IMG/VR virus record: IMGVR_UViG_3300020205_002210
Coordinates: 32,001 to 96,000 of that record
Length of the DNA stretch: 64,000 bases
Source of the DNA: a virus
Strand: one strand, 5' to 3'
The position numbers and the translations under genes were made by a program. Shown in pieces: positions 31,217 to 59,507 of this stretch; within the stretch, counting starts at the first letter, position 1; each line of letters starts with the position of its first letter. The notes below the pieces were generated by a model. That model was not told where the DNA came from and did not search any database. It worked only from the letters and a program-made list of their open reading frames with translations.

Positions 31217-32908
31217 ATGGCATTTCAAATCTCTCCAGGCGTAAATGTATCTGAAGTTGATGCAACGACTGTTGTACCTTCAGTGCAACAAACTGCTGGT
31301 GCATTTGCTGGAACATTTCAATGGGGTCCAGCGGATAAAGTAAGACAAATAGATAGTGAATTAACTCTCGTTAGTACATTCGGTAAACCAGATGCAGCTT
31401 CTGCAACAGATTTTTTTACTGCTGCAAACTTTCTATCATATGGTAATAATCTGAACATCGTTAGATCGGTCGGAAATCTTGCAAACAATGCAACCGATGG
31501 CAGCGGTGGTACGATTCAAATTAAGAATGAAGATGTTTACGAAACTACATATCTACTCACCAACAATAGCAATAGCTATGGTCCATTTGTGGGAAGATAT
31601 CCAGGACTCTTGGGTAATTCTTTAACTGTTCATGTTTGTGCAAATACAAGCACATTTAGTTCATGGAGTTACAGAAGTTATTTTACATCAGCACCAGGTA
31701 CATCAGAATTTGCCAGTTCAGTAGGCGGCAGCAATGACGAAATGCACATTGTTGTGGTTGATGCAGATGGTCTATTTACTGGATCAGCAGGTGCGATACT
31801 TGAAACTTACGGTTTTGTTTCGGCTGCTTCTGATGCAACAATTAATGGCGTAACAAACTACTACAAACAAGTCATACTTAACAACTCCAAGTATGTGTAC
31901 GCAATGAGTCCAATTGATTATGGTACAACAAATGCAACTTGGGACCGGGCTGCGGCCGGCAGAAGTTTTGCAAGACCAGCCACAAACATTGCAACCAATT
32001 TGTCTACAGGTACTAGTGTTGCACCAACAGATGGCAATATTCAAGTTTCATATGACTTCTTCACAAACAAAGAATCTATTGATATCTCACTTGTATTAAC
32101 TAGTGGGCACAGTGTTACAGTTCAACAATATGTAATTGATAATATTGCAGTTGGTCGTGCCGATTGCGTTGCTTTCATTTCTCCAAGATATTCTGATGTT
32201 GTCAACCAGTCTGGTTCAGAAACAACAAATATTGCTGGTTGGTTAGCTGCATTGGCAAGAAGTTCATCTTATGTTATGGCAGACTCTGGTTGGAAATACC
32301 AATTCGACAAGTACCACAATACATATCGTTGGATTCCATTGAATGGTGACATTGCTGGCTTATGTGTATACACAGACAGCGTTAGAGATCCATGGTTCTC
32401 TCCAGCAGGTTTCAACCGTGGTGCAATTAAGAATGCCGTTAAGTTGGCTTGGAATCCAAGTAAATCTTTCCGTGATACAATGTATGCTGCAGGTGTTAAT
32501 CCAGTAGTGTCCTTCCCAGGTCAGGGTACTGTATTGTTTGGCGACAAGACTCTGTTAGCTAAACCATCAGCATTCGACCGTATCAATGTTCGCAGATTGT
32601 TCATTACATTAGAAAAATCAATTGCACAAGCTGCAAAGTTTTCAATGTTTGAATTAAATGACGAATTCACAAGAGCACAATTCATTGCCTTAGTAGCACC
32701 ATTCTTACGCGATGTTCAAGGTCGCCGTGGTATTACAGACTTTAGAGTTGTTTGCGATTCCACAAATAACACACAACAAGTTGTTGATAGCAACCAGTTT
32801 GTCGGCGATATCTACATTAAGCCTGCGCGGTCAGTTAACTACATTCAGTTGAACTTTGTTGCTGTGGGTACTGGAGTTGACTTCGTGACCATCGTTGGTG
32901 CAGCTTAA
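31217..32908 (+). CDS. gp18: Tail sheath protein
   Basis: SPGVNVSEVD, WFSPAGFNRG and FDRINVRRLF motifs. Confidence 0.97.
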   Translation: MAFQISPGVNVSEVDATTVVPSVQQTAGAFAGTFQWGPADKVRQIDSELTLVSTFGKPDAASATDFFTAANFLSYGNNLNIVRSVGNLANNATDGSGGTIQIKNEDVYETTYLLTNNSNSYGPFVGRYPGLLGNSLTVHVCANTSTFSSWSYRSYFTSAPGTSEFASSVGGSNDEMHIVVVDADGLFTGSAGAILETYGFVSAASDATINGVTNYYKQVILNNSKYVYAMSPIDYGTTNATWDRAAAGRSFARPATNIATNLSTGTSVAPTDGNIQVSYDFFTNKESIDISLVLTSGHSVTVQQYVIDNIAVGRADCVAFISPRYSDVVNQSGSETTNIAGWLAALARSSSYVMADSGWKYQFDKYHNTYRWIPLNGDIAGLCVYTDSVRDPWFSPAGFNRGAIKNAVKLAWNPSKSFRDTMYAAGVNPVVSFPGQGTVLFGDKTLLAKPSAFDRINVRRLFITLEKSIAQAAKFSMFELNDEFTRAQFIALVAPFLRDVQGRRGITDFRVVCDSTNNTQQVVDSNQFVGDIYIKPARSVNYIQLNFVAVGTGVDFVTIVGAA

Positions 32909-53807: not shown

Positions 53808-53845
53808 AAAAGGGGCTTGACAGGCCCCTTTTTTTCATGTATAAT
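53808..53845 (+). terminator. Terminator whose loop is the -35 box of a sigma70 promoter
   Basis: GGGGC-TTGACA-G-GCCCC-T run; TTGACA (53817) -17- TATAAT (53840). Confidence 0.75.
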
Positions 53846-54060: not shown

Positions 54061-54138
54061 GGGCCTCTAGCTCATGTTGGTTAGAGCAGTGGACTCATAA
54101 TCCATTGGTGCCGTGTTCGACTCACGGGGGGCCCACCA
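54061..54138 (+). tRNA. tRNA with CAT anticodon, Ile2 (lysidine)-type
   Basis: GGGCCTC acceptor, GACT-CAT-AATC arm resembling enterobacterial ileX; encoded CCA. Confidence 0.85.
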
Positions 54139-55164: not shown

Positions 55165-55193
55165 TTGCCAAGGCTAAAAGTTTACTATATAAT
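55165..55193 (+). promoter_or_regulatory. Sigma70 promoter of the leader unit
   Basis: TTGCCA-17-TATAAT. Confidence 0.75.
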
Positions 55194-55226
55194 ACAAACA
55201 TCGTTAAGAAATTTAGAAAGAACAAA

Positions 55227-55340
55227 GTGTCCCTCATATCCTTTAAACCCTCATCGTTGCAGACGGAGTATCACACAAGTATTAATTGTGGTGATGCGTT
55301 ATGGCGCGCCGGGTTTTGTGTACAAGGATTGGACGAATAA
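55227..55340 (+). CDS. 37-aa putative attenuator leader peptide (GTG start)
   Basis: MSLISFKPSSLQTEYHTSINCGDALWRAGFCVQGLDE; purine-rich AGAAAG 6 nt upstream; contains all 20 amino acids. Confidence 0.6.
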   Translation: MSLISFKPSSLQTEYHTSINCGDALWRAGFCVQGLDE

Positions 55341-55373
55341 AAGTTCAAGTAAAAGATTCTTAACACAAGACCC
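55311..55373 (+). promoter_or_regulatory. Antiterminator helix
   Basis: GGGTTTTGTGT (55311-55321) pairs over 11 bp (one G-U) with ACACAAGACCC (55363-55373), overlapping the terminator 5' arm. Confidence 0.65.
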
Positions 55374-55399
55374 TGTTCTAACAAACAGGGTTTTTTTTT
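55370..55399 (+). terminator. Intrinsic terminator/attenuator
   Basis: ACCCTGTT-loop-AACAGGGT followed by a T run. Confidence 0.85.
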
Positions 55400-55441
55400 G
55401 CCTTTAAATTTTAATGTGTTGCAAGTAAACAACACACTGTA

Positions 55442-55470
55442 TTGACAAACCATCGAGTTCGTTGTATAAT
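55442..55470 (+). promoter_or_regulatory. Consensus sigma70 promoter for the tRNA array
   Basis: TTGACA-17-TATAAT. Confidence 0.85.
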
Positions 55471-55505: not shown

Positions 55506-55579
55506 TCGGGGATTGTGTAGTGGTAGCACAGCAGACTTTGACTCTGTTAGTGAAGGTTCGATTCCTTCTTCCCGTACCA
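55506..55579 (+). tRNA. tRNA-Gln(TTG)
   Basis: GCAGA-CT-TTG-AC-TCTGT arm, GGTTCGATTCC, CCA. Confidence 0.9.
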
Positions 55580-55640
55580 TATAAAAACACACTGCCGAGC
55601 GGTCAAATTGCGTAAGCAGATGAGTAGTGTGTTTCTATAT
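55579..55640 (+). repeat. Spacer hairpin, copy 1
   Basis: 17-bp stem with one mismatch: ATATAAAAACACACTGC / GTAGTGTGTTTCTATAT. Confidence 0.7.
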
Positions 55641-55732
55641 GGAAGATGATGCAGCGGGGTTGGTCCTGCGACTGGCCTTGAAAACCAGGTTCTCTTAATC
55701 GGGATGGGGTTCGACTCCTCCGTCTTCCACCA
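55641..55732 (+). tRNA. tRNA-Ser(TGA)
   Basis: CTGGC-CT-TGA-AA-ACCAG arm, long variable arm, CCA. Confidence 0.88.
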
Positions 55733-55735
55733 AGT

Positions 55736-55807
55736 TTCTCGGTCAGTACAGTGGGATGTGCAGGTAGACAATACACGGACAAGGTTCGAATCCAAACTGA
55801 GAATTCA
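55736..55807 (+). ncRNA. Degenerate tRNA-like element
   Basis: 7-bp TTCTCGG/CTGAGAA stem and GGTTCGAATCC T-loop; no valid anticodon arm; ends TTCA. Confidence 0.45.
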
Positions 55808-55825
55808 ATATTGTTGGGAGTTAAC

Positions 55826-56002
55826 ATGCAAGAAAATTTAATTTATCGTTTAAGAAAGCGTGCTGAAATTCGCAGACAGATTCCTACAAGAAAATCGGTG
55901 CAAGAAAATACACCGGATAGAATTGCAGATTTACTAGAAGAAGCTGCGAATAGGATTGAAGAATTGGAGAGTGGGCAGGATGGTAATGCAGCTGATTGCT
56001 AA
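55826..56002 (+). CDS. 58-aa hypothetical protein overlapping tRNA-Ser(GCT)
   Basis: SD gggag, ATG 55826; DLLEEAANRIEELE helix. Confidence 0.65.
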   Translation: MQENLIYRLRKRAEIRRQIPTRKSVQENTPDRIADLLEEAANRIEELESGQDGNAADC

Positions 56003-56055
56003 TCAGTAGGCCGTAGAAATGCGGCCACAGGGTTCGACTCCCTGACTCTCCACCA
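55966..56055 (+). tRNA. tRNA-Ser(GCT)
   Basis: GCTGA-TT-GCT-AA-TCAGT arm, long variable arm, CCA. Confidence 0.88.
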
Positions 56056-56061
56056 AAATAT

Positions 56062-56153
56062 ACCAGCGAGACTTGGGAGTCAGAGAGGTCTTATAAGCCT
56101 TTTAGCGCCAGATTAGCGTTCTTGAGAGAGTTCGATCCTCTCCGTTGGTACCA
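56062..56153 (+). tRNA. Non-canonical tRNA with TAT anticodon and long variable arm
   Basis: ACCAGCG/CGTTGGT acceptor, CT-TAT-AA loop, very short D arm, CCA. Confidence 0.6.
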
Positions 56154-56170
56154 AATTTTAGAAGTTATAT

Positions 56171-56246
56171 GTGCGTGTGACCCGAACGGTTAGGGAGCGG
56201 ATTGCAAATCCGTATTATGCAGGTTCGATCCCTGTCACGCACTCCA
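56171..56246 (+). tRNA. tRNA-Cys(GCA)
   Basis: GCGGA-TT-GCA-AA-TCCGT arm, U73, CCA. Confidence 0.9.
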
Positions 56247-56253
56247 GAGACAA

Positions 56254-56329
56254 GCACCATTCGTCTAACGGTTAGGACGCTGCCCTTTCAAGGCGGAAAC
56301 GAGGAGTTCGATTCTCCCATGGTGTACCA
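56254..56329 (+). tRNA. tRNA-Glu(TTC)
   Basis: CTGCC-CT-TTC-AA-GGCGG arm, CCA. Confidence 0.9.
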
Positions 56330-56380
56330 AATTATTTTAAGGAGATAGTATGAAGAAAAGTATCAAGACTCGAAAACGAC

Positions 56381-56454
56381 AGGGGTGAAACTTTAAGGTG
56401 AAGTAACTGGCTTTTAACCAGTAAAACTCGGATCGTTCCCGAGCACCCCTACCA
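56381..56454 (+). tRNA. tRNA-Lys(TTT)
   Basis: ACTGG-CT-TTT-AA-CCAGT arm; ATCGTTC T-loop; CCA. Confidence 0.85.
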
Positions 56455-56529
56455 TAGATAAACACATTGGGATTAAATTCTGGTCACCCCAGCGCATAAG
56501 AGGTTGCGTACAGTGTGTTTTTCTATGGT
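56451..56529 (+). repeat. Spacer hairpin, copy 2
   Basis: 19-bp stem with one mismatch: ACCATAGATAAACACATTG / CAGTGTGTTTTTCTATGGT. Confidence 0.7.
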
Positions 56530-56580
56530 GAAACTATTCAGGTTCAATGGTCACACGCCCTTGCTTGAAATAGAAGTTGC

Positions 56581-56691
56581 CATATTAAAGTATATTTCAG
56601 GTTGGGTTAGATTCGCGGTCTAACTATTTGGGATAAAAAGTCGGCGTAATTGCAGGATAATAATCTAAGATACGGAATATACTTTAATATG
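56581..56691 (+). ncRNA. Long-stem structured spacer RNA
   Basis: Perfect 16-bp inverted repeat CATATTAAAGTATATT / AATATACTTTAATATG enclosing a GTTAGA/TCTAAC hairpin. Confidence 0.6.
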
Positions 56692-56696
56692 TAAAC

Positions 56697-56782
56697 GGAG
56701 ATGTGGCAGAGTGGTTGATTGCACCAGACTGTAAATCTGGCCCCTAAAAAGCGCGGTGGTTCAAATCCATCCGTCTCCACCA
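56697..56782 (+). tRNA. tRNA-Tyr(GTA)
   Basis: CCAGA-CT-GTA-AA-TCTGG arm, long variable arm, CCA. Confidence 0.9.
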
Positions 56783-56865
56783 AAACAAGAGTACAGGCTC
56801 TTTATAAATCCTGTCTTTGTGTGGAACCGAGCAATGCTCCTGCTTGTATAAGTATCGGTTCAATT

Positions 56866-56939
56866 GGGGGATTAGTATAATGGGATTACGGCAGCTTTGC
56901 AAGCTGTTTACGGGAGTTCGATCCTCCCATCCTCCACCA
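56866..56939 (+). tRNA. tRNA-Ala(TGC)
   Basis: G3-U70 pair, TGC anticodon, CCA. Confidence 0.92.
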
Positions 56940-56947
56940 TAGTTTTA

Positions 56948-57022
56948 GGTTTCAAAGTGTTCATGGACGCACGTAGGCTTGTCACGCCTAAAGAAGGGGA
57001 TCGTTACCCCTTGAGACCGCCA
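56948..57022 (+). tRNA. tRNA-Asp(GTC)
   Basis: TAGGC-TT-GTC-AC-GCCTA arm; ATCGTTA T-loop; GCCA end. Confidence 0.88.
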
Positions 57023-57027
57023 AGTTT

Positions 57028-57118
57028 GGATGTAATAGTTGGTACGAGTGGGCATAAATTGCTTGTCCATGACATGTTTCGAGCATGAAGGTTGGTTCGA
57101 TTCCAACAGCATCCACCA
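57028..57118 (+). ncRNA. tRNA-like RNA with no canonical anticodon arm
   Basis: GGATGT/GCATCC acceptor, GTTGG-TTCGATT-CCAAC T arm, ACCA end. Confidence 0.6.
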
Positions 57119-57126
57119 AGTTTTAT

Positions 57127-57205
57127 TCCGCAGAACCCGAGCAAGGTGCATGGGCGTGACTGTTAATCACTGGTTAGTAGAGTTCGATTCTCTAATGCGG
57201 AGCCA
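57127..57205 (+). tRNA. tRNA-Asn(GTT)
   Basis: GTGA-CT-GTT-AA-TCAC arm, GCCA end. Confidence 0.88.
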
Positions 57206-57212
57206 AGTTTTT

Positions 57213-57286
57213 CTCTGATTGGTGAAATGGTATCATCCGTGCTTTGGGAGCATGTGGCGCAAGTTCGATTCTTGCATCGGAGACCA
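57213..57286 (+). tRNA. tRNA-Pro(TGG)
   Basis: CGTGC-TT-TGG-GA-GCATG arm, CCA. Confidence 0.9.
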
Positions 57287-57298
57287 AAAAATGTAAAT

Positions 57299-57383
57299 GC
57301 TCTGATGGTGGAATAGGTAGACACAAGAGACTTAAAATCTCTCGCCTTCGGGTGTGCCGGTTCGATTCCGGCTCGGAGCACCA
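57299..57383 (+). tRNA. tRNA-Leu(TAA)
   Basis: AGAGA-CT-TAA-AA-TCTCT arm, long variable arm, CCA. Confidence 0.92.
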
Positions 57384-57388
57384 AGTTA

Positions 57389-57463
57389 AGTTCTATGACG
57401 TAGACGGATGCGTACCGGCTTCATAAGCCGAGGAGATTGGATCGTTACCAATTAGAACTACCA
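57389..57463 (+). tRNA. tRNA-Met(CAT), elongator-type
   Basis: CGGC-TT-CAT-AA-GCCG arm; A1-U72; ATCGTTA T-loop; CCA. Confidence 0.82.
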
Positions 57464-57469
57464 GATTAT

Positions 57470-57544
57470 GGGTCTTTAGTAAAATGAATATTACACTGGG
57501 CTACGAACCCGGAAGTGGGAGTTTGATTCTCTCAAGACCCTCCA
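57470..57544 (+). tRNA. tRNA-Arg(ACG)
   Basis: CTGGG-CT-ACG-AA-CCCGG arm, CCA. Confidence 0.85.
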
Positions 57545-57547
57545 AGA

Positions 57548-57744
57548 CGTTCCGCTTTGTTAGCGGATACTGTGACCCGCAGGATGAGAAGTGAGGTGAC
57601 TCTCACGGGTGGTAGTCTTTAAACCGAAAGGCCGCTAGCAATGCGATAACGGTCCCTGTCGGGAAGCGGGTGGAAGGTGTGTGAGATTTGCGGAGAAATC
57701 CAAGAGATGATGCACTATAATTACCGCCGAGGGATGCAGAGCAT
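57548..57744 (+). ncRNA. About 200-nt GC-rich multi-stem RNA of unknown family
   Basis: Nested stems and GNRA loops; no SD-led ORF; flanked by tRNAs. Confidence 0.6.
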
Positions 57745-57746
57745 AT

Positions 57747-57820
57747 ACCCATATAGCTCAAAGGTAGAGCACTGGCTTGATAAGCCATAGACGAAGGATC
57801 GTTACCTTCTGTGGGTACCA
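57747..57820 (+). tRNA. tRNA-Ile(GAT)
   Basis: TGGC-TT-GAT-AA-GCCA arm; ATCGTTA T-loop; CCA. Confidence 0.88.
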
Positions 57821-57828
57821 GATTTTAT

Positions 57829-57905
57829 TACGGTGTAGTTCCAATTGGCAGAACGATGGTCTCCAAAATCATATGTTGTGGGTTCGAATCCCTCCGCCGT
57901 AGCCA
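57829..57905 (+). tRNA. tRNA-Trp(CCA)
   Basis: ATGGT-CT-CCA-AA-ATCAT arm, GCCA end. Confidence 0.88.
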
Positions 57906-57926
57906 GTTTTTAAAAAGGTGAATAAT

Positions 57927-58418
57927 ATGAAAAAGTTCGATGTAAATGAAGTTAAGTCCTTCCTTGCAAAACAAGGACCAAACACCAAAGTCTACCTTGG
58001 TGCCGATTCTGAACGCATCAGAATAAACGGAGTTTGGTATGCAGACTATGCTCTTGCAGTCGTTGTTCATATTAATGGCCAAAATGGTTGTAAAATTTTT
58101 GGATATGTTCAACGTGAATTGGACTATGACCATAAAAAAAGTAAACCTGCAATGCGATTGATGACAGAAGTATATAAAGTTTCAGAGTTGTTCCAAGAAA
58201 TGCAGGATGTTCTGGAAGATTTTCATGTTGAAGTTCATTTAGACTTGAACAAGGATGATGTACACGGAAGTTCTTGTGTGGTACAACAAGCAATTGGTTA
58301 TATCAAAGGTACATGTAACATGACACCAATGGTTAAACCAGATGCGCCTGCAGCAAGTTTCTGTGCTGATAGATTGAAAAGAATCTTAGCTGAACAAGAA
58401 ACTTCAATTGTTCAGTAA
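57927..58418 (+). CDS. RNase H-like protein (YkuK/DUF458-type)
   Basis: VYLGADS, RLMTEV, EVHLDLN and KPDAPAASFCADR motifs. Confidence 0.7.
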   Translation: MKKFDVNEVKSFLAKQGPNTKVYLGADSERIRINGVWYADYALAVVVHINGQNGCKIFGYVQRELDYDHKKSKPAMRLMTEVYKVSELFQEMQDVLEDFHVEVHLDLNKDDVHGSSCVVQQAIGYIKGTCNMTPMVKPDAPAASFCADRLKRILAEQETSIVQ

Positions 58419-58421
58419 TAT

Positions 58422-58497
58422 GTTGTCGTTAGTGTAATGGTTAGCACCAGAGATTGTGAATCTCTTAGCATGGGTTCGAATCCCATACGTCAACCCA
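58422..58497 (+). tRNA. tRNA-His(GTG)
   Basis: G-1:C73 pair; GAGA-TT-GTG-AA-TCTC arm; CCA. Confidence 0.9.
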
Positions 58498-58504
58498 AAA
58501 TAAT

Positions 58505-58578
58505 GCCTCGGTAGTTTAATGGTAGAACGGCATCCTTACACGGTGCATACGGGAGTTCGATTCTCCAACGAGGTACCA
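58505..58578 (+). tRNA. tRNA-Val(TAC)
   Basis: GCATC-CT-TAC-AC-GGTGC arm, CCA. Confidence 0.9.
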
Positions 58579-58583
58579 AATAT

Positions 58584-58659
58584 GCAACCTTAGCTGATGT
58601 GGTCATAGCGGCGGTCTGAAGAGCCGTTGAAGTAGGTTCGATTCCTACAGGTTGCACCA
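58584..58659 (+). tRNA. tRNA-Phe(GAA)
   Basis: GCGGT-CT-GAA-GA-GCCGT arm, CCA. Confidence 0.9.
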
Positions 58660-58663
58660 GATT

Positions 58664-58741
58664 GCCCCCGTGGACAAATTGGCAAAGTCATCTCTCTCAA
58701 AAGGAGAAATTCTCTCGGTTCGACTCCGAGCGGGGGTACCA
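58664..58741 (+). tRNA. tRNA-Leu(CAA), short variable loop
   Basis: TCTCT-CT-CAA-AA-GGAGA arm, CCA. Confidence 0.85.
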
Positions 58742-58800
58742 TGTAGAATCCTTGTGCTTGCCTTGTAATGTAATTTGTGTTATATTATAGTTTAAATAAT

Positions 58801-58877
58801 GCCCCGGTGACGGAATTGGTATACGTGTTGGTCTTAGAAACCAAATTTTAGGAGTTCGAGTCTCCTCTGGGGCACCA
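58801..58877 (+). tRNA. tRNA-Leu(TAG), short variable loop
   Basis: TTGGT-CT-TAG-AA-ACCAA arm, CCA. Confidence 0.88.
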
Positions 58878-58882
58878 GTTAT

Positions 58883-58957
58883 CCGGCCTTAGTATAATGG
58901 ATAATACAGCGGTCTTCTACACCGTGAATATGGGTTCGATTCCTGTAGGCCGGACCA
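58883..58957 (+). tRNA. tRNA-Arg(TCT)
   Basis: GCGGT-CT-TCT-AC-ACCGT arm, CCA. Confidence 0.88.
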
Positions 58958-58992
58958 AGTTGTAATGTGATAGTTATTTAAAGAAAGTAAAT

Positions 58993-59160
58993 ATGAAACC
59001 GACAAAAACATTTAATCTCAGCAAACGCACCAAAACAATGATGACATTGATGCCGTTCAAAGATCAAGAAACTCGTAATGCTTTTAAACGTATGATGATT
59101 GATGCTCAGCTTTGCAGTGAGATTGTTCCAAAGAATTCAAAAGAAAAGAATTCTGATTAA
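58993..59160 (+). CDS. 55-aa hypothetical protein (MKPTKTFNLSKRTK...)
   Basis: Read by hand; SD agaaag; fills the spacer exactly up to tRNA-Gly. Confidence 0.65.
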   Translation: MKPTKTFNLSKRTKTMMTLMPFKDQETRNAFKRMMIDAQLCSEIVPKNSKEKNSD

Positions 59161-59161
59161 T

Positions 59162-59236
59162 GCGGGTATGGTGCTAGTGGTAACACATGACCTTGCCAAG
59201 GTTAAGTTGAGAGTTCGATTCTCTCTACCCGCTCCA
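59162..59236 (+). tRNA. tRNA-Gly(GCC)
   Basis: TGACC-TT-GCC-AA-GGTTA arm, U73, CCA. Confidence 0.92.
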
Positions 59237-59286
59237 GTTAACACGGCCTTTGCCTCTAAATTTTTTTACGCAAAGGTTCTTTTTTT

Positions 59287-59361
59287 GCCCCTTTATCCTT
59301 AATGGTAGAGGTCCGGTTTTGTAGTCCGGGTGCGTGAGTTCGATTCTTGCAAGGGGCACCA
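59287..59361 (+). tRNA. tRNA-Thr(TGT)
   Basis: CCGG.-TT-TGT-AG-.CCGG arm, CCA. Confidence 0.87.
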
Positions 59362-59384
59362 ATTGGTATATTTTAAGAAAAGTA

Positions 59385-59413
59385 TTGACTACAACAAATT
59401 TTTAATGTATACT
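59385..59413 (+). promoter_or_regulatory. Sigma70 promoter inside the tRNA array
   Basis: TTGACT-17-TATACT. Confidence 0.65.
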
Positions 59414-59433
59414 TGATGCATATATAGTATTAT

Positions 59434-59507
59434 GCGGGATTCGTAAAATGGTATTACCTTAGATTTCCAATCTAAAGTCAACAGTTCGATTCTGTTATCC
59501 CGCTCCA
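59434..59507 (+). tRNA. tRNA-Gly(TCC)
   Basis: TTAGA-TT-TCC-AA-TCTAA arm, U73, CCA. Confidence 0.92.

Follow-up and report, generated by a model that had tools for sequence, protein, structure and literature searches.

What is the role of a terminated transcription unit whose 37-codon open reading frame (ORF) contains every one of the 20 amino acids, and which stands directly before the tRNA array of a phage? The question is raised by positions 55165-55399 of a 64,000-nt stretch of viral DNA (hereafter the window; positions 32,001 to 96,000 of the IMG/VR record IMGVR_UViG_3300020205_002210). An earlier note, made from these letters, had interpreted the unit as a translation-sensing attenuator acting on the tRNA array. 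Attenuation by leader peptides is textbook knowledge as a device that senses from one to about three amino acids and controls biosynthetic or synthetase genes; to our knowledge, multivalent leaders sense about three amino acids at most. Comparison with relatives on more than 60 related phage contigs (42 distinct peptides, 48 nucleotide-distinct members) supports the earlier interpretation, and we consider it fairly probable that the element, placed before a complete tRNA set, works as a ribosome-mediated (leader-peptide) transcription attenuator with a leader in which all amino acids are sampled.

The leader unit and its relatives

A first promoter (P1), the GTG-started ORF of 37 codons, an intrinsic terminator, an 11-bp alternative pairing and a second promoter (P2) had been proposed for this locus, and all of them were found at the positions claimed. 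The parts up to the terminator are listed below in window coordinates.

55165-55193, plus strand: promoter P1, TTGCCA-17-TATAAT, 11/12 consensus matches, kept in relatives; predicted transcription start (+1) at about 55200
55200-55226, plus strand: 5' untranslated region (UTR) with the purine-rich Shine-Dalgarno (SD)-like motif AGAAAG (55215-55220), 6 nt before the GTG
55227-55340, plus strand: leader ORF of 37 codons, GTG start, TAA stop, all 20 amino acids
55268-55297, plus strand: internal hairpin GUAUCRC...GYGAUAC, inside codons 15-24, kept in relatives
55311-55321, plus strand: segment 2, GGGTTTTGTGT, 5' half of the putative antiterminator, with the codons Gly-Phe-Cys-Val; its last base is 19 nt upstream of the final base of the stop codon
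55363-55373, plus strand: segment 3, ACACAAGACCC, 3' half of the putative antiterminator, overlapping the base of the terminator 5' arm
55367-55399, plus strand: intrinsic terminator; stem-loop 55367-55394 with an 11-bp stem and a 6-nt loop, then T9

Translation of 55227-55340 confirmed that the ORF contains all 20 amino acids. The probability of this is 9e-4 for a 37-mer of the phage amino-acid composition and 7e-3 among open-frame nucleotide shuffles of the window ORF. Among the 871 ORFs of 25-45 amino acids in the 121-kb genome, two have all 20, and the one that is not the leader overlaps a tRNA gene. The full coverage of the window ORF by itself is thus hardly beyond chance, and the case rests on the comparison with relatives.

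Relatives were retrieved from 80 IMG/VR loci through the neighbouring gene for a 171-amino-acid protein. A hidden Markov model (HMM) of the peptide, run against all stop-to-stop frames with no composition filter, detected the ORF in 56 of these 80 loci. A loose DNA pattern scan of IMG/VR gave mostly chance matches, with the element in 10 of 118 loci, and added 7 loci; four more distant versions were located by position. A profile search of 1.84 billion (1.84e9) representative proteins returned 14 clusters, one of which (L200) has another gene order, lying after regA, Hsp20 and two tRNAs. No match to the element was obtained in GenBank phages by blastn or tblastn, the latter covering 50,697 phage records.

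The leader reading frame is maintained

The leader frame is open throughout the relatives, both in the 56 loci retrieved by way of the adjacent gene and in the additional ones. Insertions and deletions in the leader are multiples of 3, and the position of the stop codon is constant relative to the downstream RNA elements. The start codon turns over between GTG, ATG and TTG, behind an SD-like purine run (AGAAAG, AGGAAG, GGAGA). In approximately half of the variants (L003:3540-3570, L038, L058, L066 and others) an ATG lies exactly 6 nt after TATAAT, which is the predicted +1, and a leaderless mRNA is therefore expected. The other variants have a 5' UTR of 19-35 nt with an SD-like motif (GGAGA, AGGAAG or GAGAAAG), at the same distance from the start as AGAAAG in the window. 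These patterns indicate that the leader reading frame is selected.

A nucleotide alignment in which many relatives had a 24-nt deletion of the start codon had also been considered as a sign of a non-coding RNA. This idea was rejected, since translation in all frames shows that those relatives start at an ATG at the 5' end of the transcript.

Amino-acid completeness is maintained while the peptide varies

The earlier note had proposed to ask whether related phages keep a short ORF with full amino-acid coverage despite divergence. This is the case: the 42 distinct peptides (31-44 residues) contain all 20 amino acids in 26 instances, 19 in 13, 18 in 1 and 17 in 2, so that 39 of the 42 have 19-20. 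Several leaders of only 31 residues have all 20, for which the exact probability is 1e-4. When residues were shuffled within alignment columns (2000 shuffles), the mean was 17.9 distinct residues and the maximum 18.4, and none of the 2000 reached the observed mean; complete peptides numbered 26 against 3.4 expected. Shuffles within clusters of close relatives gave 612.6 +/- 2.4 against 624 observed of 640, with 0 of 5000 as high; these coverage shuffles retain some phylogenetic structure and are not tree-aware. For individual sequences, the probability of all 20 in composition-matched open-frame shuffles ranged from 4e-4 to 2.6e-2. Among the independent representatives of the 14 protein clusters, 10 have 20 amino acids, 3 have 19 and 1 has 18.

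Coverage drops on shuffling because the single His, Cys or Arg is placed differently in each lineage. Thus L047 has His5 and Arg16, where L044 has Arg5 and His16, and the Cys site precedes the EYRT motif in the L028 and L058 groups and follows it in the group of the window. Variable sites are distributed over the three codon positions as 65/64/89. Of the variable codons, 93 differ in the encoded amino acid and 28 at synonymous sites only. Such weak constraint on the peptide points to selection on frame and composition and not on a folded or binding product. Conservation is concentrated in the core GAG TAT CGC ACA ... TCA TGG, where synonymous sites are conserved too and the first part forms the stem of the RNA hairpin. 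Tyr15 (55269-55271) and Trp26 (55302-55304) are invariant in 23 diverse members, the Tyr codon lying in the stem of the internal hairpin. Nearly all of the diversity lies upstream of segment 2, with a mean of 18.8 kinds of amino acids in 29 codons. Taken over the family, the comparison argues that amino-acid completeness is selected and the peptide sequence mostly not.

The invariance of the Trp (TCATGG) is an observation apart; it may reflect a role of the nascent peptide in the ribosome.

The choice of codons is also unusual. The 36 codons that follow the start of the window leader include 32 distinct ones (P=0.026), and the earlier count of 17 G/C-ending codons among these 36 proved correct: the G/C content at third positions (GC3) is 0.47, compared with 0.28 for a set of 100 genes from this genome (P=0.01). 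Rare codons are enriched (mean ln w -0.66 vs -0.36, P=0.001), namely CCC, GGG, ACG, CTC, TCG, GCG and CGC. Over the whole family the dominant leader codons are GAG, CAG, GCG, CGC, CCC/CCG, GGG and CTC, all minor in phage genes; GAG, CAG, GCG, CGC and CCC/CCG account for just 4-26% of synonymous use there. Many of these codons are read by the single U34 tRNAs of the phage through wobble only, and the leader would therefore be sensitive to tRNA supply. As a sign of decoding sensitivity, this codon usage is only suggestive.

The antiterminator pairing co-evolves with the terminator

The proposed 11-bp pairing of 55311-55321 with 55363-55373 was confirmed and consists of 10 Watson-Crick pairs and one G-U pair. 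In the window the duplex of segments 2 and 3 has a predicted energy of -20.4 kcal/mol (z -3.6). Each of the 48 nucleotide-distinct members can form a duplex between the final 60 nt of its ORF and the terminator's flank and arm on the 5' side; the best such duplex has a predicted energy of -12 to -23 kcal/mol, with z from -1.6 to -7. This antiterminator duplex overlaps 4-10 nt of the terminator arm and is stronger than the terminator hairpin (-8 to -14 kcal/mol). Distant members (L056, L076, L030, L064, L200) show the same pairing with z -3 to -5. Segment 3, which is non-coding, is nevertheless invariant in the group of close relatives, and in relatives the terminator hairpin is retained while its stem sequence turns over.

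The earlier note had further asked for covariation in the helices. Counts of covarying columns in a MAFFT alignment were uninformative, and even the certain terminator hairpin had only 23% paired cells; the counts are weak because the alignment is out of register. Duplex energies of the individual sequences and a comparison of cognate with non-cognate pairs were used in place of column covariation. Changes on one strand are matched on the other. The spacers lengthen or shorten jointly (GGG-UUUU-GUG/CAC-AAGA-CCC, GGG-UAU-GUG/CAC-AAA-CCC, GGG-UA-GUG/CAC-AA-CCC), and an altered terminator arm is met by a complementary change in the ORF (GAGGG with CCCUC, GGAGG with CCUC, CUGGG with CCCAG). Cognate pairs have a mean of -18.8 kcal/mol and non-cognate pairs of -14.5, a mean loss of 4.3, and none of 20,000 permutations equalled the cognate set. 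The RNAalifold consensus for the subgroup of the window is the helix of segments 2 and 3, in which the sole variable pair changes from U-G to U-A or C-G. The antiterminator pairing thus co-evolves with the terminator arm.

From the end of the pairing to the end of the ORF, flanking nucleotides included, there are 0-9 nt in most members (window 11, L019 16, L066 25), and in all 48 members the terminator has a U tract and its stem begins 26-37 nt after the stop codon. With these distances segment 2, though not the terminator, would lie under a ribosome positioned at the stop codon, much as in trp. When folding of the window transcript was modelled up to position 55378, the antiterminator formed with a probability of 0.97-0.99, and with a probability of 0 when a ribosome was modelled with its A site on codons 25-36.

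The leader RNA as a whole is predicted to be structured (minimum free energy, MFE, -53.2 kcal/mol; z -3.1). On the sequence evidence it is best described as a three-element switch, made up of the ORF 3' segment, the terminator 5' arm and the terminator 3' arm, together with a conserved internal hairpin. The upper stem of that hairpin shows compensated changes (e.g. L038 vs L040), and it is a plausible candidate for an RNA polymerase pause hairpin. The motif ACACAAG, for which two copies competing for one segment had been claimed, is indeed present at 55273 and 55363, but the competitor role of the copy at 55273 is not kept in relatives, where this position belongs to the conserved internal hairpin.

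A further possible helix was noted in the subgroup of the window. The 5' UTR sequence GUUAAGAA (55203-55210) is perfectly complementary to UUCUUAAC (55357-55364), just before segment 3. The predicted fold has this helix enclosing the entire terminated RNA as a single domain; leaderless relatives do not have it.

The leader is constantly linked to a tRNA array

The features between the terminator and the end of the array are the following.

55415-55436, no strand assigned: inverted repeat TGTGTTG-N8-CAACACA, 5 nt upstream of the P2 -35 hexamer, a possible protein site
55442-55470, plus strand: promoter P2, TTGACA-17-TATAAT, 12/12 consensus matches
55506-59507, plus strand: tRNA array of 24 ARAGORN genes, the first being tRNA-Gln(UUG); further tRNAs at 54061 and 60589

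Every leader member is followed by a tRNA gene, 11-139 nt downstream. Of the 46 HMM-detected members whose downstream sequence is long enough, all but L139 have tRNA-Gln(UUG) first; L139 has tRNA-Pro there. In L030 and L200 a tRNA-Ser-type gene follows the leader. Arrays with enough sequence hold 24-29 tRNAs for 19-20 amino acids, and ARAGORN found 26 tRNA genes in the window.

The earlier note had cautioned that P2 could drive the array independently. The caveat holds for the window and for most members, which have a strong P2, but not for several lineages: no second promoter was recognisable in at least seven, L047, L044, L031, L139, L030, L056 and L200, whose tRNA lies 11-56 nt after the U tract. 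In those lineages a polymerase arriving from this side can reach the array only through the terminator.

Nearly all P2-bearing relatives (L003, L028, L058 and others) have a palindrome TGTTG(T)-N4-8-(A)CAACA 3-8 nt upstream of the P2 -35 hexamer (20 nt in L127), with invariant arms and a variable spacer. It looks like a dimeric protein-binding site and not like an RNA hairpin, so that P2 may be regulated too.

Within the array, positions 55641-55728 of the window gave an Rfam tRNA-Sec-like match (33 bits, below the gathering score) and no ARAGORN call. A similar sequence lies directly after the L200 terminator. The window match is probably the tRNA-Ser(UGA) of the array.

A model for the leader, and its alternatives

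To account for the observed anatomy, the conserved frame, the maintained coverage, the co-evolving pairing and the constant linkage to the tRNA array, we infer that the ORF is translated, in which direction the switch works and which signal it senses, as follows. Host sigma-70 RNA polymerase would initiate at P1, and a ribosome would translate the leader of 31-44 codons, often from an AUG at the very 5' end. With fast decoding it would arrive at the end of the leader and there cover or sterically block the G-rich segment 2, segment 3 would form the terminator, and transcription would stop at the U tract. A ribosome held in the first 25-30 codons, which comprise 18-20 different amino acids, often in rare wobble-read codons, would leave segment 2 to pair with segment 3; the base of the terminator would then be blocked and the polymerase would read through into tRNA-Gln and the array. 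The leader would in this way act as a one-of-each test of the aminoacyl-tRNA pool, whose failure may come from amino-acid starvation, tRNA cleavage or tRNA shortage. Where P2 is missing, the switch would be the proximal control of the array; in the window, P1-driven transcription would be added to that from P2. The attenuator appears to be the most economical reading, as the combination of weak peptide constraint, completeness, co-evolving antiterminator and tRNA linkage is unmatched by any rival. To its strongest form we would give even chances: a decoding gauge of about 30 codons in which every amino acid is kept by selection, often in the hardest-to-read codon of its box, and in which any single shortage, cleavage or starvation switches on the full replacement set of tRNAs.

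Several findings weigh against the attenuator or against the gauge. The complete leader, folded at equilibrium, favours the terminator at any ribosome position (probability 0.98 for ribosome-free RNA, 0.72-0.84 when a ribosome occupies codons 1-10), and any switch must therefore be kinetic, as in known attenuators; a switch was seen solely in the co-transcriptional model, with the truncated transcript. The mutually exclusive helices of the his/trp-type geometry named in the earlier note are present, but a full set of 1:2, 2:3 and 3:4 helices is not supported: the 5' region of the ORF pairs weakly with segment 2 (mean z -0.97), a segment 1:2 helix (AAACCC with GGGTTT) that would sequester segment 2 is unsupported across the family, and an untranslated leader might for this reason default to read-through. 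Incomplete leaders occur with promoter, pairing and terminator intact (17 kinds of amino acids in L060, L037 and L030, and 16 in L064), and L129 has no Val in its leader although its array encodes tRNA-Val. Internal (elongator) Met is missing from most leaders. Val and Gly are often encoded only inside segment 2, and a ribosome stalled at the window Trp, Arg or Val codons would cover segment 2 in our model. A stall at Val or Gly, and in the window also at Trp or Arg, is thus predicted to be too near segment 2 to free it. Part of the unusual codons lie inside conserved RNA helices and may reflect structure and not decoding. Finally, most members, the window included, have a strong P2 that could drive the array independently.

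We also considered the idea that the amino acids missing from a leader are those whose tRNAs are missing from its array. The sole usable case, L129 with its missing Val, did not match, and the idea was dropped.

The incomplete leaders bear on a more modest version of the same mechanism, in which the attenuator senses global translation only (whether ribosomes are available, initiate or are coupled to RNA polymerase, for instance during host shut-off or antibiotic-type stalling) and the coverage is a side effect of a balanced, structured sequence. The architecture is the same in L064 and L030, with just 16-18 amino acids; balanced GC (0.41-0.48) also raises diversity, with shuffle means of 15.3-17.3, and ORFs overlapping tRNA genes reach 19-20 amino acids as well. 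We nevertheless regard this version as unlikely, as composition-matched shuffles reach 20 in just 0.04-2.6%, the coverage observed was never attained in column shuffles with composition preserved, and the relocation of His and Cys is hard to explain without selection on completeness.

Could the unit instead be a stand-alone small-protein gene that merely adjoins the array, encoding a peptide of 31-44 amino acids with an E-Y-R-T ... D ... S-W core? A promoter and a terminator of its own flank the ORF, most members have P2 behind the unit, and frame and core are conserved, the invariant Tyr15 and Trp26 included. Outside the core, however, the sequence is nearly free to vary, as the 93 changing against 28 synonymous-only codons show, and the core itself is also conserved at synonymous sites, within an RNA hairpin. 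Peptides of four diverse members gave chance-level matches alone in Pfam-A and PHROGs (E 0.07-0.19). A gene of this kind would leave unexplained why coverage is kept through relocation of residues, why the 3' end of the ORF and the terminator arm co-evolve, and why tRNAs lie directly behind the terminator in lineages without P2; we hold it to be quite improbable. Little probability likewise remains for a trans-acting small RNA (sRNA), possibly of dual function, in which a terminated transcript of about 200 nt would act on other RNAs or proteins through the conserved single-stranded ACACAAGACCC region or through its hairpins and the ORF would be secondary. The predicted structure (MFE and z given above), the invariant non-coding segment and the conserved internal hairpin would suit an sRNA, and there is precedent for terminated attenuator RNAs and leader peptides that act in trans, namely rnTrpL and peTrpL in Sinorhizobium (PMC7968998, PMC7298713). 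Yet a non-coding RNA would keep neither the frame, through indels and start turnover, nor the amino-acid coverage, and the invariant segment is accounted for by its pairing with segment 2. The Rfam 15 covariance models, T-box included, gave no family at E<=1 within 55165-55400. Activity in trans, whether by the terminated RNA or by the peptide, is compatible with the attenuator and could come in addition to it.

Relation to known systems

Of the hallmarks of known attenuators, the phage leader has a conserved short ORF with a start signal, an intrinsic terminator, an exclusive antiterminator with compensatory change and, in the model, masking by a ribosome at the stop codon. Tandem or clustered regulatory codons are absent; there are no runs, and 18-20 amino acids occur about once each. 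The trpL, hisL, leuL and pheL leaders and the multivalent thrL and ilvGMEDA leaders likewise combine a short ORF and an intrinsic terminator with an antiterminator that uses the terminator 5' arm. In these amino-acid operon leaders, as in the phage leader, the last part of the ORF carries the antiterminator's 5' half, which would be masked by a ribosome at the stop codon, so that a stall would give read-through. The phage leader differs from them in having no single-codon runs and in targeting tRNAs and not biosynthetic enzymes. It further differs in having no evident 1:2 anti-antiterminator, in the separate conserved hairpin in its ORF, in the many leaderless versions and in being phage-borne.

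The nearest published biology is the trn operon of Anabaena sp. PCC 7120, an L-array of 23-26 tRNA genes that is induced under translational stress (PMC8421152). Like the unit proposed here, it is a supernumerary, near-complete tRNA array whose transcription goes up when elongation is impaired (PMC8421152). The L-array is, by contrast, controlled at the promoter level by the repressor TrcR, which acts on direct repeats, and PMC8421152 and PMC10272220 mention neither attenuation nor a leader peptide. T-box riboswitches resemble the phage leader in that they sense tRNA charging through a choice between terminator and antiterminator, but a T-box binds one specific uncharged tRNA directly and without translation. 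In ermC-type leaders and the hflXr leader of Listeria, as proposed for the phage leader, a stall in a short ORF remodels the downstream RNA and turns genes on, and they act as general sensors of ribosome trouble (PMC6310831). They respond, in contrast to what is proposed for the phage leader, to drug-bound ribosomes at particular peptide motifs and not to how well each aminoacyl-tRNA is supplied, and do not control tRNA genes. A full-text search of the published literature gave no description of leader-peptide control of tRNA genes.

If the proposed mechanism is true, a leader with all amino acids that precedes a full tRNA set would gauge decoding capacity in general and regulate the supply of tRNAs. 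The leader would explain the timing and dosing of large phage tRNA arrays and amount to a phage-encoded homeostat of the whole tRNA pool, possibly a counter to host defences that target tRNAs. It offers a testable link between phage tRNAs and host defences that deplete or cleave tRNAs. Selection would here act in a rare mode, on the amino-acid composition of a peptide and not on its sequence. The leader family is compact (about 200 nt) and has many natural variants, leaderless and P2-less ones included.

Genomic setting

The viral contig of IMG/VR to which the window belongs is 121 kb long, has 38.5% GC and is 72% complete according to CheckV. The genes adjoining the leader encode an Hsp20 protein, a dCMP deaminase and the 171-amino-acid protein, which has no Pfam family and whose relatives occur in T4-like phages. 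The phages that carry the leader family are uncultured freshwater T4-like phages.

A second unit with a lone tRNA lies further upstream in the window (53808-53845 and 54061-54138), upstream of the dCMP deaminase gene. It consists of a terminator, a consensus promoter (TTGACA-17-TATAAT), a 72-amino-acid ORF with no Pfam family and a single tRNA-Met.

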